A stretch of DNA of 64,000 bases from an uncultured virus (IMG/VR IMGVR_UViG_3300030406_000618) (Duplodnaviria > Heunggongvirae > Uroviricota > Caudoviricetes). This document shows positions 24,031-62,058 of this stretch, piece after piece. The position numbers and the translations under genes were made by a program. The notes below the pieces were generated by a model. The model was not told the DNA's origin. It did no database searches and was given only the letters and a program-made list of their open reading frames with translations. Numbering within the stretch: the stretch's first letter is position 1; every line of letters begins with the position of its first letter. Location of the stretch: the IMG/VR virus record IMGVR_UViG_3300030406_000618; one strand, given 5' to 3'.

Positions 24031-25695
24031 CTATATACAGAAAAATACACTATCTTTTACCTGCTCTAGATTTAGATTACCCTTAGGTGGTAATTTAGGG
24101 AACTTGTTTTGATTTTTAGTAGACAACATAGCATACATTTGGTCTGACCATTTCTGTAGTACATCATCTTGGTAAATATCAAAGAAGGCTTCCCTTATAG
24201 CCTTTGACATAATGTCTGTTTCAGGTGCGACTACACCAAAACTATCATGTATCATACTAAAACTATCAACACCTGCTTCGTGTGCTTTTACTACTGCTAG
24301 TTGTAGACATGATGCATCTAGACTATGTATAAAATTAGGCGCAACTGATTGTGATATTTTTCTACTGTCAATGTTATCTGTTTCTGATTGCACAGTTAGT
24401 TTTATTATACTGTCACCCATTTTTGTTTTCACTCTCTTGTGTTCCATTTTGTAATTCATCATCTGCACTGGCGCATTCAATGGTGTTGTCCAAGATACAG
24501 GTAAATTTTCTGACGCAACAAGACGAGATACTTCTTGTAAAAATGCCATAATATTTTTTGCACCAACAACTACATCACCTATGCTATCCCAAACAACAGG
24601 TGTTAAATATTGTGTTGCTCTAAATAAATCGTCACCAAAATTGTGTTGCTTTCCTCTGTCTTGTAATTCTTTTACTACATGCTCTTCTATATATTCTCTA
24701 CATGAATATCTTGTCAGGCCGTATGGCAAACACATTGTAGGTTTCTTACATATTTTTCTATCTATGCCATAGTCAATCCATTGCATAGCTATCTTATCTC
24801 TACGTTGATTTAACTTTTCTAATACCTTAGTTGCAATGATGCCGTATATGTCTTGTGGTTTATTACTTGGTATTAAATTAGTAGCCTTACCACCATGTTC
24901 ATCTCGCATCATAGCTGAATAATGTTGTAAGCCTGAGTTACTACAATCTGTCTGTACTGGTAATGAAGTTAAAAATTTATTACTAAATCTTGTACTAGCA
25001 AACTCTTCATACTCTTTACAAAATGCATAGAATGCAAACGGTTTGTCTGCGCTATTCCACCATGTATCTCTCAATGGGTCTTTTGCAGTAGATAATATTC
25101 TATCATGGTTTGCTTGCACCCATTTTATCCTTGTGTTGATATCTTCTTTGTCAACTTCACCAAAACAATTTGCACCATATATAAATAAATGATGTTCACT
25201 ATCGCCTATAGGTTTTCCATATTTAAAAGTAAGTAAAGTCCTTGACCAGTCAGCACCTTGTGGATTTAACAATGCAGGCTTAGGATATATTCTCCACCTA
25301 AAATCATACTGATGTGGAAAGAACATTGACTTACCACCATATAATTTAGCTATGTTTAGCACCTGATTACATTGTATAAATTTAGATTTTTGTTGGTGTC
25401 TAAGGTCATAAACTTTATTTGCTCTACGTTTATAATCTCTTAGACTTTCTTTGTTTGTTGCAATATCGTATGGCTTAGGTGGTAGTTCTATAGTCTCAGG
25501 ATTTACAGGTAGCTTACCTAATGCATAGTTATTATCTAAACAAGTCTGTATAAGTTTGTATACGTGGTCGTTTCTAACCCATTCTGTTTCTTGTATACAA
25601 TCTATAGCCTTATATACATAAGGCATGTCATTAACTATATTATTTAACTCTTCTAAGTATTGTCTATTTCTTTGTTTTTGTAGATTGTAATGCAT
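24031..25695 (-). CDS. T7-type RNA polymerase, C-terminal catalytic part
   Basis: Motif A DCSNSGLQH, motif B RKICKKPTMCLPYG, motif C IHDSF; own RBS GGAAGGGGT. Confidence 0.93.
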   Translation of the reverse strand: MHYNLQKQRNRQYLEELNNIVNDMPYVYKAIDCIQETEWVRNDHVYKLIQTCLDNNYALGKLPVNPETIELPPKPYDIATNKESLRDYKRRANKVYDLRHQQKSKFIQCNQVLNIAKLYGGKSMFFPHQYDFRWRIYPKPALLNPQGADWSRTLLTFKYGKPIGDSEHHLFIYGANCFGEVDKEDINTRIKWVQANHDRILSTAKDPLRDTWWNSADKPFAFYAFCKEYEEFASTRFSNKFLTSLPVQTDCSNSGLQHYSAMMRDEHGGKATNLIPSNKPQDIYGIIATKVLEKLNQRRDKIAMQWIDYGIDRKICKKPTMCLPYGLTRYSCREYIEEHVVKELQDRGKQHNFGDDLFRATQYLTPVVWDSIGDVVVGAKNIMAFLQEVSRLVASENLPVSWTTPLNAPVQMMNYKMEHKRVKTKMGDSIIKLTVQSETDNIDSRKISQSVAPNFIHSLDASCLQLAVVKAHEAGVDSFSMIHDSFGVVAPETDIMSKAIREAFFDIYQDDVLQKWSDQMYAMLSTKNQNKFPKLPPKGNLNLEQVKDSVFFCI

Positions 25696-26632
25696 TCTTT
25701 ACCCCTTCCACTGTATTTTCCTCGTTATATTTTTTGCCATAGTAACCACCAACAAAAGGATTTTCCCACTTGCGAGGTGGCATAATCATAGGCATAAAAT
25801 CAGGATGTAAAGCTTCGTTAGATATATTAAAATTTTTTATTTCTTCTATCGTTTTATCTGTAGCTTCAACATATCTTATAGATTTATTCTTATATATTTT
25901 CTTTAGCGGTATATTTATTAACCCAACTATTTTTAAAAAATAAATCATCTTTGTACCTAAATGCACTTTGTCTGTCTTGTTCCATTTAATAAAATCTACG
26001 TTGTTTTTATTCATAAAATAAACCCACACGTTTTTCTTATACATGTATTTGTTTTCTGTTTGAGGTATAGATTTACTAGAATTTAATTTATTAGAAACTC
26101 TAGCATACAATGATTTATCAGTTGCCATAAACTGTGTAATCCTTGCTTCCATTTCTAACGCATTACCAATTTTTATACTTAATCTATTCAGTGTTTGTCT
26201 GTTTGATATACCGTCTATACTATTTTTTATAATAATTAAACTAGCCTTATCCCATATAATCGGTATGTCATTTTTTAATTCAGCATTATTAAAATGCTTT
26301 TGTTCTAGACATTGACATATAAGTTTAATTGCAGTTTGGTGTCTGCCTGCCAAACCTTGTAAGGATTTAGTTACCCATTCGTGTATCATCTTAGATAAGA
26401 TTGATACATACTTCTGCTGAAATACTATTCCATGTAACGTAGTGCTTTCTTGACCCTTGGCCATAGCATTGTTGACTTGTTTGTTAAACTTCTCAATACC
26501 ACCACGCATCATCATTTGTTCTAACTCTAGTTCTTCTTCTATTTTTTTGGAATAATTTTCATCATCACGAAATTTACCGCCAACACCTACACGCATAAGT
26601 TCCTGTAGTTGCTCTTGGATAAGTCTATCCAT
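25664..26632 (-). CDS. T7-type RNA polymerase, N-terminal part
   Basis: IGNALEMEAR, KVHLG and PMIMPPRKW...GGYY motifs; stops after a 32-nt overlap with the next ORF. Confidence 0.88.
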   Translation of the reverse strand: MDRLIQEQLQELMRVGVGGKFRDDENYSKKIEEELELEQMMMRGGIEKFNKQVNNAMAKGQESTTLHGIVFQQKYVSILSKMIHEWVTKSLQGLAGRHQTAIKLICQCLEQKHFNNAELKNDIPIIWDKASLIIIKNSIDGISNRQTLNRLSIKIGNALEMEARITQFMATDKSLYARVSNKLNSSKSIPQTENKYMYKKNVWVYFMNKNNVDFIKWNKTDKVHLGTKMIYFLKIVGLINIPLKKIYKNKSIRYVEATDKTIEEIKNFNISNEALHPDFMPMIMPPRKWENPFVGGYYGKKYNEENTVEGVKNALQSTKTKK

Positions 26633-59089: not shown

Positions 59090-59129
59090 GCTAGTGGGGT
59101 TTATACCCCATTAGCAAAAATTTTTTTTT
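59090..59129 (+). terminator. Hairpin / probable terminator
   Basis: GCTAGTGGGGT-ttat-ACCCCATTAGC followed by A5 and T9. Confidence 0.6.
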
Positions 59130-59149: not shown

Positions 59150-59178
59150 TTGAATATACCGAGCACTCGTGTTACAAT
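59150..59178 (+). promoter_or_regulatory. sigma70-type promoter
   Basis: TTGAAT-17 nt-TACAAT with TGn extension. Confidence 0.6.
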
Positions 59179-60153: not shown

Positions 60154-60400
60154 TTCTATGAAAGTATTACAACTTAGATGGATTGAATCAGTACAAAAGA
60201 TGTATGATGCTCTTGATAAAGATGTAGTAAAGTATGGTAAATATAAATTTGATGAGGTTGTATTAGTACATAACGAAATGATAACACAACTCTGTTCTAC
60301 TATAGATAATATAGAAGAAGAATTAATTAAGACAACTCATACGATTAAGTATTTGAATGAAGCAGCAGTAAAACTAAAGGAGGCTATCAAAAATGGGTAG
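60146..60400 (+). CDS. Hypothetical protein
   Basis: AAGGAGG RBS, overlapping neighbours. Confidence 0.6.
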   Translation: MSDSMKVLQLRWIESVQKMYDALDKDVVKYGKYKFDEVVLVHNEMITQLCSTIDNIEEELIKTTHTIKYLNEAAVKLKEAIKNG

Positions 60401-60803
60401 ATATTACGAAGGCGATATAGAAGGTAAGTTCTGGTTTGGTGTACAATCTAGTGATGATGCAGATTTTTTTGGACAACAAGGATTTCAACCAGAGTGGCTT
60501 GAATATTTCTTTGATGAAAAAGACTTGGAAAAAATACAGAAAGGTGTAGATACTTGTCTAACAAAACTTGGTGATAAGAAAAAATTATTAGATGATTTCT
60601 TTGAAAGAGTAGAAGGTTATACAAGAGAAGAAGTATGTAAGGTATTAGATGTACCAGTACCAAAAGTAGGTATGTCAATACAAGATCATAACAAAAGTAA
60701 ATACCATTATTATTTAGAATGGTATGCACGATATGAACTAGGTAAGAAGATACTAGATCGTGTTAAATCAAATGGTTTCTGTTCGTTTAGAGCAGAAATA
60801 TAA
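60393..60803 (+). CDS. Hypothetical phage protein
   Basis: MGRYYEGDIEGKFWFGVQSSDDA; AAGGAGG RBS. Confidence 0.7.
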   Translation: MGRYYEGDIEGKFWFGVQSSDDADFFGQQGFQPEWLEYFFDEKDLEKIQKGVDTCLTKLGDKKKLLDDFFERVEGYTREEVCKVLDVPVPKVGMSIQDHNKSKYHYYLEWYARYELGKKILDRVKSNGFCSFRAEI

Positions 60804-60808
60804 GTTTA

Positions 60809-61183
60809 ACTGGGTGCATTGGTCTTTGTAGCAGTGAGTGAAAGAAAGCTGATAGGCTTGGTAAGACAAGTTAGCGTAAAGAGGGTGAGACCTACCTCTG
60901 CCCAGTAAAAAGTTTCCGTATGGAACTGTGTAGGAAAGACATAAGGTAGTAAGCGTAAAGCTAAAGCTGGTGGCTACACGCCTACACAGAAAGTTTCGTG
61001 ATACTGAGTAGCTCTCGGTATCGGCTGACTGAACAACTCTTTAACAGAGGGGTAAGGTACACTTGAGATGAAGTATGGGCAAATGCCTGAGGTACTCGAA
61101 GGTGGTTGTAAGTAGGCAAATGATGAATGTATATCTGTAGCTGAAAGCATGAGGGTAATAACACTAATCCCTCGCCCTTGGCG
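60809..61183 (+). ncRNA. Candidate structured non-coding RNA(s)
   Basis: About 400-nt gap without a long plus-strand ORF, packed with nested stems (detailed in findings). Confidence 0.5.
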
Positions 61184-61203
61184 AATGTAACAAAGGAGGA
61201 AAT

Positions 61204-62007
61204 ATGTTACCACAAGAACTAATGTTTCAGGTACGTGAAGAACCTGTATATAACCAACATGGCTCAAGGCTAGATGGCTACAAGCAGTTGGTTAAAGACG
61301 AGAACAACGAACTGATTGCAGTTCACAAGAACACATACCGAGTCATATCACATGACACAGTATATGATAAAGCTAAAGATTTTCTAACAGATAACTTTAA
61401 CACCAATGGTATGACTGAGGAACACAAATGGTCTAACCATGGTGCTGTAATGGCTACTAGATTCTCTTTACCAGAGTATCAGATACCATTCAAAGATACT
61501 TCTATTGGTCTAGAAGCTGTAGTATGGAACAGCTACAATGGTATGCGTTCATTTAGATTTGATCTAGGTTTCTACCTGTGGTTATGTCTTAATGGACTCA
61601 AGAATTCGGTATGGGATATCAGTTTGAATACTGCACACAAAGGTAGTGGTGAGATTAAACTAGCATTACCTGGTGGTTATGCAGCTCTTGATGGACTACA
61701 AACTGTATATAACTACATGACTAACTGGTTAGAAACACCAGTACAAGACTATGAATTATATAGTGAAATAGATAGATTGTGCTATCAGCCAACACGTACT
61801 GACAAGAGTCATGTCAATCAACAACATAGAAATTATATTGTAGATCAGTATGAAAACAATTATGCAAAGACATATGGACCTAATAAATTCAGTGCATATC
61901 AAGCAATTACACACTGGAGTACACATTATCCTAGCGATTCCGTAAATACTCGTTATGATAGAGAAAGGAAAGTGTCTAACATGGCTTGGTTTAGCCAAGC
62001 AGCGTAG
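61204..62007 (+). CDS. DUF932/DUF945-like protein
   Basis: VH...Y..I.H, NSYNG, CLNG, H and N.FSAYQAITHWSTH pattern. Confidence 0.75.
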   Translation: MLPQELMFQVREEPVYNQHGSRLDGYKQLVKDENNELIAVHKNTYRVISHDTVYDKAKDFLTDNFNTNGMTEEHKWSNHGAVMATRFSLPEYQIPFKDTSIGLEAVVWNSYNGMRSFRFDLGFYLWLCLNGLKNSVWDISLNTAHKGSGEIKLALPGGYAALDGLQTVYNYMTNWLETPVQDYELYSEIDRLCYQPTRTDKSHVNQQHRNYIVDQYENNYAKTYGPNKFSAYQAITHWSTHYPSDSVNTRYDRERKVSNMAWFSQAA

Positions 62008-62013
62008 AGATTA

Positions 62014-62058
62014 GATGGGAGTGCACTTCTTCATCTTATTCCTCCTCGTACTCCCATC
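62014..62058 (+). other. 11-bp hairpin with anti-Shine-Dalgarno loop
   Basis: GATGGGAGTGC / GTACTCCCATC; loop ACTTCTTCATCTTATTCCTCCTC. Confidence 0.6.

Follow-up and report, generated by a model that had tools for sequence, protein, structure and literature searches.

Genomic setting of the noncoding island

The window, by which we mean the whole 64,000-nt stretch of DNA that was analyzed, carries the genome of a marine podovirus at ~33 to 64 kb, and in the plus-strand early region of this genome lies an intergenic stretch of 400 nt (60804 to 61203), here called the island. A preliminary description had pointed to a long gap in an otherwise overlapping gene array, and this is indeed the sole large one, the other early gaps ranging from -59 to +60 nt. 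Among 277 phage records, the best match to the portal protein was Pelagibacter phage Hodr (55% identity); we infer from this match, and from the hosts of the phages that carry unit A (see below), that the host is SAR11. Two podovirus genomes lie one after the other in the window (1 to ~33000 and ~33000 to 64000, the latter bearing the island), each with its own portal, capsid, and terminase. The first is T7-like and includes an integrase, a split RNA polymerase (open reading frames [ORFs] 24031 to 25695 and 25664 to 26632), and an ArdC-like gene. This arrangement may reflect either an assembly join or elements in tandem. Features of the island and its surroundings are as follows.

59150..59178, plus strand: putative sigma-70 early promoter with TG before the -10 hexamer (consensus match only)
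60393..60803, plus strand: upstream ORF of 136 aa, unknown function (phrog_33624, E = 6.7e-20); its stop codon overlaps linker 1
60802..60807, plus strand: linker 1, AAGUUU, a cassette boundary with a predicted RNase E site (AG/UUU)
60810..60906, plus strand: unit A, uncatalogued pseudoknotted RNA (covariation, homologues in pelagiphages)
60811-60815/60900-60904, plus strand: closing stem of unit A, followed by a variable hairpin
60821-60824 with 60889-60892, plus strand: pseudoknot of unit A, GGUC with GACC (invariant, the letters being part of the search pattern)
60857-60870 and 60880-60899, plus strand: helices P3 and P4 of unit A
60910..60915, plus strand: linker 2, AAGUUU, before unit B
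60916..60990, plus strand: unit B, uncatalogued RNA (small 5' hairpin, closing stem, and inner stem)
60926-60934/60981-60989, plus strand: 9-bp closing stem of unit B
60991..60996, plus strand: linker 3, AAGUUU, directly before unit M
60997..61186, plus strand: unit M, reduced manA-type RNA (RF01745)
G61129-C61164 and U61130-A61163, plus strand: L8-L9 loop-loop pairing of unit M
61195..61199, plus strand: ribosome-binding site for DUF932, not part of any predicted helix
61204..62007, plus strand: DUF932 gene, 267 aa (PF06067, E = 1.7e-8), a neighbor rather than a partner of the island

The putative promoter at 59150 to 59178, which lies just 3' of a terminator-like hairpin (59090 to 59115), probably initiates the transcript that includes the island, as judged from its sequence and position. 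Promoter-like matches in the region are not in excess (19, versus 20.9 in shuffles), no plus-strand promoter match was found between 60310 and 61811, and no terminator-like site was found inside the island. For the DUF932 protein, searches by sequence found no solved relative and no match in cultured phages. Directly 3' of the DUF932 stop codon, at 62014 to 62058 on the plus strand, is an 11-bp hairpin with a CCUCC loop (anti-Shine-Dalgarno, cuckoo-like). CCTCC occurs within 90 nt behind the DUF932 gene in 41 of 41 related loci, so that this hairpin, which is possibly a 3' UTR-derived sRNA, is tied to the gene, unlike the island.

The island has a G+C content of 0.44, compared to 0.35 in the flanking genes. 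Its folding energy is within chance as a whole (z of -0.68 on the plus and 0.17 on the minus strand), and the values for units A (-0.75), B (-1.89), and M (-0.75) are likewise not significant. The case for structure therefore rests on comparison. Every stem listed in the preliminary description was found at its place in the sequence, and its central claim, that of a structured noncoding plus-strand RNA under selection, is borne out by covariation in units A and M and by the lack of a conserved reading frame. The argument for the plus strand from G-T pairs is likewise upheld by exchanges of G-U for G-C and of U-G for C-G in many pairs of both units. In contrast, the description treated the island as a single element of ~400 nt, where we find three separately inherited units that differ in slots, orders, and neighbors. 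On comparative sequence evidence, the island is real and noncoding and comprises three RNA units on the plus strand that are independent of one another, each with AAGUUU at its head.

At Rfam gathering thresholds, there were no matches in the whole window. The Rfam/Infernal search that had been proposed succeeded for unit M, which is recognized as manA (RF01745) below the cut-off, and gave no family for units A and B. Matches to snoRNAs at E values of 1 to 6 are attributed to chance. Covariance models of ribozymes, run over 60600 to 61400 at E values up to 10, matched nothing. Twister, pistol, HDV-like, fluoride, M-box, SAM-IV, and T-box RNAs, all considered because of some resemblance, differ in topology and produced no matches. 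No tRNA was found next to the units in 60 loci.

Unit A, a pseudoknotted RNA of pelagiphages

Unit A is a compact core of ~70 nt with many fixed unpaired letters, found across myo-, sipho-, and podoviruses. In an alignment of 31 sequences, two-sided changes occurred in 12 of 25 pairs and in 114 cells, versus 34.6 in shuffles, counts that are inflated by the relatedness of the sequences; slid controls were 31 to 51% paired. Stems CTTG/CAAG and AGAGG/CCTCT both covary, as does the closing stem, although just 81% of its cells pair. In P4, the first two variable pairs hold in 98 of 98 sequences and use four and five types of pair. Of the stems proposed earlier in unit A, GCTGA/TTAGC is not supported, being 69.7% paired, equal to shuffles. 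The GGUC/GACC pseudoknot did not figure in the preliminary list of stems; much of the invariance in unit A, including these letters, was built into the search patterns.

A 16-letter pattern for unit A produced 86 viral matches, 64 of which had the second conserved block downstream, while a looser pattern produced at least 120 matches (81 distinct among the matches listed), all but 3 of them motif-like by eye. A model built from 42 sequences found unit A in the cultured SAR11 phages Mosig (a myovirus; 68.9 bits) and Kolga (56.5 bits) and, weakly, in the T7-like HTVC021P (20 bits, E = 0.011), where the loop is changed and GACC is kept. Searches by blastn added matches in Aegir and HTVC048P. No Rfam family matched unit A in the window, in neighboring arrays, or in related phage loci; a GGUCUU in the radC RNA alignment is a superficial likeness, and radC itself did not match. 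Unit A is a strongly covarying and uncatalogued RNA that is present in cultured SAR11 phages, where it is annotated either as nothing or as hypothetical proteins. In Mosig (MT647606.1, 9556 to 9906; locus L211, 1340 to 1690), a run of hairpins and unit A follow a bS21 gene and are overlaid by two hypothetical proteins, Mosig_00014 and Mosig_00015, which are probably false ORFs.

Among the 74 unit A contexts with 600 nt or more of upstream sequence, 35 had a bS21-like gene in the locus. A promoter-like site lay within 120 nt behind unit A in 20 of 110 contexts, compared to a background of 4.9%. A scan of GTDB for unit A gave no chromosomal home: among 40 matches, only one (L257) was the motif and the others lacked the stems. 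L257 is a 3.9-kb contig in a Rhodobacteraceae bin and is possibly a misbinned virus. Two phage loci in which bS21 and a small heat-shock gene accompany unit A also had matches to the glutamine riboswitch above the cut-off (L287, 1668 to 1716; L332, 1677 to 1730).

Unit B, a near-invariant RNA

The pattern for unit B gave 24 to 28 matches, some of them due to chance, and the unit is present at other genome sites. No Rfam family matched it, and blastn searches against cultured phages returned short chance matches only. Its stems are 98.6% paired, with no two-sided change in 20 pairs among 11 distinct and near-invariant sequences. Inserts of up to ~45 nt occur at one point of the inner stem and form hairpins of their own; this stem, 3 bp long, shows a single two-sided change. 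The fold of unit B is thus supported indirectly, by the inserts at one point and the single two-sided change.

Unit M, a reduced manA-type RNA

Unit M matches RF01745 at 34.4 bits (E = 4.4e-7; model positions 1 to 192, window positions 61002 to 61181), the only significant family; this score is below the Rfam gathering cut-off of 55.2 bits, and its relatives score 33 to 41 bits. With helix numbers mapped from the Rfam consensus, P1, P2, P3, P4, P6, P8, and P9 are present, while P5 and P7 are absent in all 27 aligned copies. The P1 hairpin, the conserved internal loop of P3, and the P9 hairpin of manA are all found in unit M, with covariation. Two-sided changes were seen in 12 of 43 pairs and 76 cells, versus 21.6 in shuffles (27 sequences). 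Among the stems that had been proposed, GATACTGAG/CTCGGTATC and GAGGG/CCCTC covary, and so does GGGC/GCCT. ACAAC/GTTGT is a mixed case: it is 97.8% paired, but it has no two-sided changes, and two pairs of a different helix compete with it. Based on these sequence comparisons, unit M is a reduced variant of the manA type.

The loops of P8 and P9 are complementary in a way that appears to be maintained. Among 27 copies, the covarying pair is G-C in 17 and U-A in 10, its neighbor is U-A in all 27, and a third pair forms in 14 of 25. A later metagenome scan supplied 21 held-out copies, and the L8-L9 pair is present in 20 of them; the remaining copy is truncated. Blastn searches of unit M against cultured phages gave short chance matches only. 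A narrow subtype model (R1, 85% column identity) did not recover the manA RNA of cyanophage S-CREM1 whole, returning two fragments of 3 to 4 bits.

Several features of manA RF01745 are shared with unit M, including the 5' hairpin, the GUGACUGAAUAA-type internal loop, the closing multiloop, the 3' hairpin, and L8-L9 complementarity. The original manA alignment (PMC2864571, supplement 5), in the part available, already has rows with the first loop and P6 of unit M and with the reduced plan that lacks P5 and P7. The accessible text of a recent preprint (bioRxiv 10.64898/2026.07.01.735769) describes manA cages (60-mers) resolved by cryo-electron microscopy and held by L5-L7' and L8-L9' contacts, names L8-L9' as an intermolecular contact in the 60-mer, and still calls manA putatively cis-regulatory. 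Unit M differs from manA as described there in lacking P5 and P7 (the GUGGU and ACCA loops) and hence the L5-L7 contact of both described pentamers; it also has a closing stem of 3 bp and lies in an array instead of a 5' UTR. It would therefore represent a natural deletion variant in which one assembly interface was kept and the other lost.

Cassette-like array and probable exchange at linkers

A search with the DUF932 protein returned 47 viral loci, of which 41 were analyzed by script (6 had no gene start), and the upstream ORF was present in 35 of these 41. The slot between the two genes was empty (9 to 11 nt) in 18 of these 35 loci, held RNA units in 15, and held a protein gene in 2; several of the loci are almost identical, and the counts are not of independent genomes. 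In empty loci, the ribosome-binding site of the DUF932 gene comes directly 3' of the stop codon of the upstream ORF. A manA-type unit was present in 14 of the 15 RNA-holding slots, with zero to two other units in front of it, different from those of the window. Pattern searches for each unit of the window located them in other slots as well, chiefly behind the SSB gene. Counting unit strings together with flanking markers, 36 were different, and both orders were seen for B and M (B-M and M-H-B) and for C and M (C-M and M-C). Considering the empty slots, shuffled orders, and changing neighbors, we are highly confident that the units are independent of one another and do not form a leader.

Contigs from four marine RNA libraries, from four studies, hold the units. 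In one, position 60807 is joined to 60991 with 77 other letters between them, amounting to a swap at the linkers. In three runs, coverage is mainly of the island and the DUF932 gene has no contig cover; such contigs may be DNA and carry no information on ends, strand, or level, and no ranking of expression was drawn from them.

Further units occupy the same arrays. Unit C, an uncatalogued RNA of ~80 nt found in the same slots (L013, 2703 to 2790; L025, L031, L052, L054, and L105), has a pseudoknot that covaries by eye and a UGAUC loop and is palindromic in some copies. Eight or more additional structured units, including H-type pseudoknots whose linkers are A rich and hairpins with CCUCC loops, recur in these arrays (L018, L054, L081, L118, L066, L102, L071, and L089), with no Rfam matches in the loci scanned. 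At L010, L017, L032, and L046, doubled linkers separated by two to four bases stand where other genomes carry a unit and resemble scars of lost cassettes.

Linkers and promoters at the 5' ends of units

In the window, all three units have a single-stranded RN/WUU site at their 5' end. The RNase E consensus RN/WUU was mapped in Salmonella and is similar in Vibrio and Rhodobacter, according to the accessible parts of PMC5222698 and PMC7398697. The AG/UUU of the linkers fits this consensus. Across contexts, AGTTT ending within 4 nt of the unit was found for 17 of 20 manA-type units, 16 of 17 B units, 5 of 5 C units, and 3 of 3 D units, compared to a background of 0.5%. Unit A, whose contexts come mainly from other phage groups, has a loose anchor: of 37 contexts, 6 have AGTTT and 17 have RNWTT, the background for the latter being 10%. 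This signal is positional only; AAGTTTC is not enriched in the window as a whole (20, versus 15.4 expected). The Rfam consensus of wcaG RNA also begins with AGUUU.

Linkers and promoters appear to replace one another. Of 42 distinct manA-type contexts, 33 had only a linker, 8 had only a promoter, 1 had neither, and none had both. The one context without either has AAATTT, which still fits RNWUU, and in the 8 promoter contexts a sigma-70-like promoter ends 9 to 13 nt upstream of the unit. Among 19 new contexts from later metagenome loci, 6 lacked the linker, and all 6 had a promoter. The mutual exclusion has a Fisher P value of 7.6e-8, which overstates independence since the 8 promoter contexts represent two lineages only. 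The inferred host presumably possesses RNase E. We have good confidence in reading the linker as a processing site, though AGTTT could also be the inherited first letters of each unit or a recombination scar. If correct, the linker rule makes a sharp prediction for existing phage-host cultures and offers a handle for listing more phage RNAs.

Interpretation and alternatives

Taken as a whole, the island is, in our judgment, likely to consist of three stand-alone small RNA genes that occupy a slot in the early operon, are released by RNase E, and act in trans. The units would be transcribed on the plus strand within an early polycistronic RNA, and host RNase E would cut the single-stranded linkers at AG/UUU to give three RNAs, each beginning with 5' UUU followed by a protecting 5' stem. 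Recombination between coinfecting relatives would exchange units at linker boundaries in the manner of accessory genes. The freed RNAs may then act by shape, titrating host components, which is the least-supported step of this scheme; candidate partners are translation or RNA-decay factors, defense proteins, or a small molecule, and the manA-type unit may oligomerize via its L8-L9 loops. By analogy, a decoy or sponge role is the likeliest job, a decoy being among the functions named in the preliminary description, although we give it somewhat less than an even chance. Titration is favored since the content of the slot varies like that of accessory genes, since loops and pseudoknots rather than a seed are conserved, and since unit A is often found beside bS21.

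The preliminary description had suggested a leader of the DUF932-like gene or a ribozyme. With respect to the former, a cis-regulatory leader or riboswitch might be formed by the manA-type unit, either by itself or together with A and B, a role that Rfam also suggests; manA was rated cis-regulatory by Weinberg et al. in 2010 (PMC2864571), and in 13 of 30 distinct contexts (11 by script, 2 by eye) the unit ends ~27 nt before a start codon. Yet those 13 starts belong to at least six different genes, with DUF932 in 6 and other genes in 7 (2 by eye), and the remaining 17 contexts have no gene nearby. Neither a consistent place 5' of related genes nor an expression platform, as expected of a riboswitch or 5' leader, was found for unit M. 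The manA of S-CREM1 is wedged between tRNAs, and the more-than-half-empty DUF932 slots, the lack of a terminator-like site in the island, and a ribosome-binding site outside the helices also speak against a leader. Since DUF932 comes next in only 6 of 30 contexts, sequence context indicates that unit M is not its leader, and we consider such a role very unlikely. For the latter, no known ribozyme family was matched in the island or in neighboring arrays, so that the idea comes down to a new ribozyme class, represented by unit A or B, that would process its own transcript by self-cleavage. The small core of unit A, its pseudoknot, its fixed unpaired letters across three phage morphologies, and the diverged HTVC021P copy, which keeps GGUC/GACC with a changed loop, would all suit a catalyst. 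However, much of that invariance stems from the search patterns, the linkers already provide a processing route, and many copies occur singly or are followed by a promoter, leaving a ribozyme unlikely.

The linkers might instead mark insertion or recombination at the DNA level, with the units staying in the mRNA as stabilizers, nuclease roadblocks, or selfish passengers. Swaps do join at the linker, doubled linkers with no unit between them exist, and the phage encodes recombination proteins, including a YqaJ/RecE-like exonuclease. On the other hand, copies that have a promoter and no linker start close to where the others do, as would suit a requirement for a defined 5' end; inspection of the unit ends by eye showed no inverted repeat of the integrase type; and purifying selection on loop-loop pairs would be unexpected for passengers. 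We regard a DNA-level mark as quite unlikely. Small proteins, named in the preliminary description as an outcome that would count against it, are exceedingly improbable. Two antisense ORFs are present in the window (60974 to 61267, 97 aa; 60982 to 61164, 60 aa), but the minus frame is open in just 15 of 30 copies of unit M, not always as the same frame, and the plus frame is open in 0 of 30. Single-base indels occur in the unit M alignment, and the longer ORF requires the DUF932 gene, which is absent beside most copies.

Extending the reading of released, trans-acting RNAs, we tentatively propose, while leaning against its holding in full, that SAR11 phages carry an exchangeable repertoire of at least a dozen folded RNA effectors in RNase E-punctuated arrays, in which unit A would be a new ligand- or protein-binding or catalytic class that serves takeover or counterdefense, and manA would be free-standing, its reduced form assembling via one of two known interfaces. 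The contexts of manA in themselves point to a free-standing RNA rather than a cis-regulatory element.

Relation to known RNA arrays

What was already known comprises manA, the RNA clusters of S-CREM1, and the release of sRNA rows by RNase E. In S-CREM1 (OP535465), a full manA abuts tRNA-Leu and tRNA-Asn. The wcaG/manA/abiF cluster of this phage, as set out in the accessible text of PMC9964418, resembles the island in having several structured RNAs, manA included, on one strand of a marine phage; it differs in being read as cis-regulatory and punctuated by tRNAs, where the island has no tRNA, AGUUU linkers, and shuffled units. The CcsR sRNAs of the alphaproteobacterium Rhodobacter sphaeroides are similar to the island in that they form a row cotranscribed with a protein gene and released by RNase E, but they are four homologous anti-Shine-Dalgarno hairpins tied to one gene, while the island units have unrelated folds, are phage borne, and are not gene tied (comparison limited to the available portion of PMC8034643). 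The accessible part of a pelagimyophage survey reports that regulatory RNAs were not found (PMC7029224). Neither units A and B nor shuffled arrays with punctuating linkers turned up in the literature searched, which included PMC12379486, PMC5737381, two 2026 preprints, and supplements, with most subscription papers outside the search. The alignments of Fremin et al. 2023, of which PMC10690425 gave partial access, could contain the motifs of units A and B as unnamed candidates.

Flavobacterium-1 RNA (RF02976), an orphan family, adjoins unit A in arrays L192, L286, and L282 at scores above the cut-off; it is absent from the window and unrelated in sequence to units A, B, and M. In HTVC027P (L439, 570 to 1060), an unannotated intergenic stretch of 550 nt after a promoter contains Flavobacterium-1 RNA (90.2 bits) and more hairpins, which gives this orphan family a cultured SAR11 phage.
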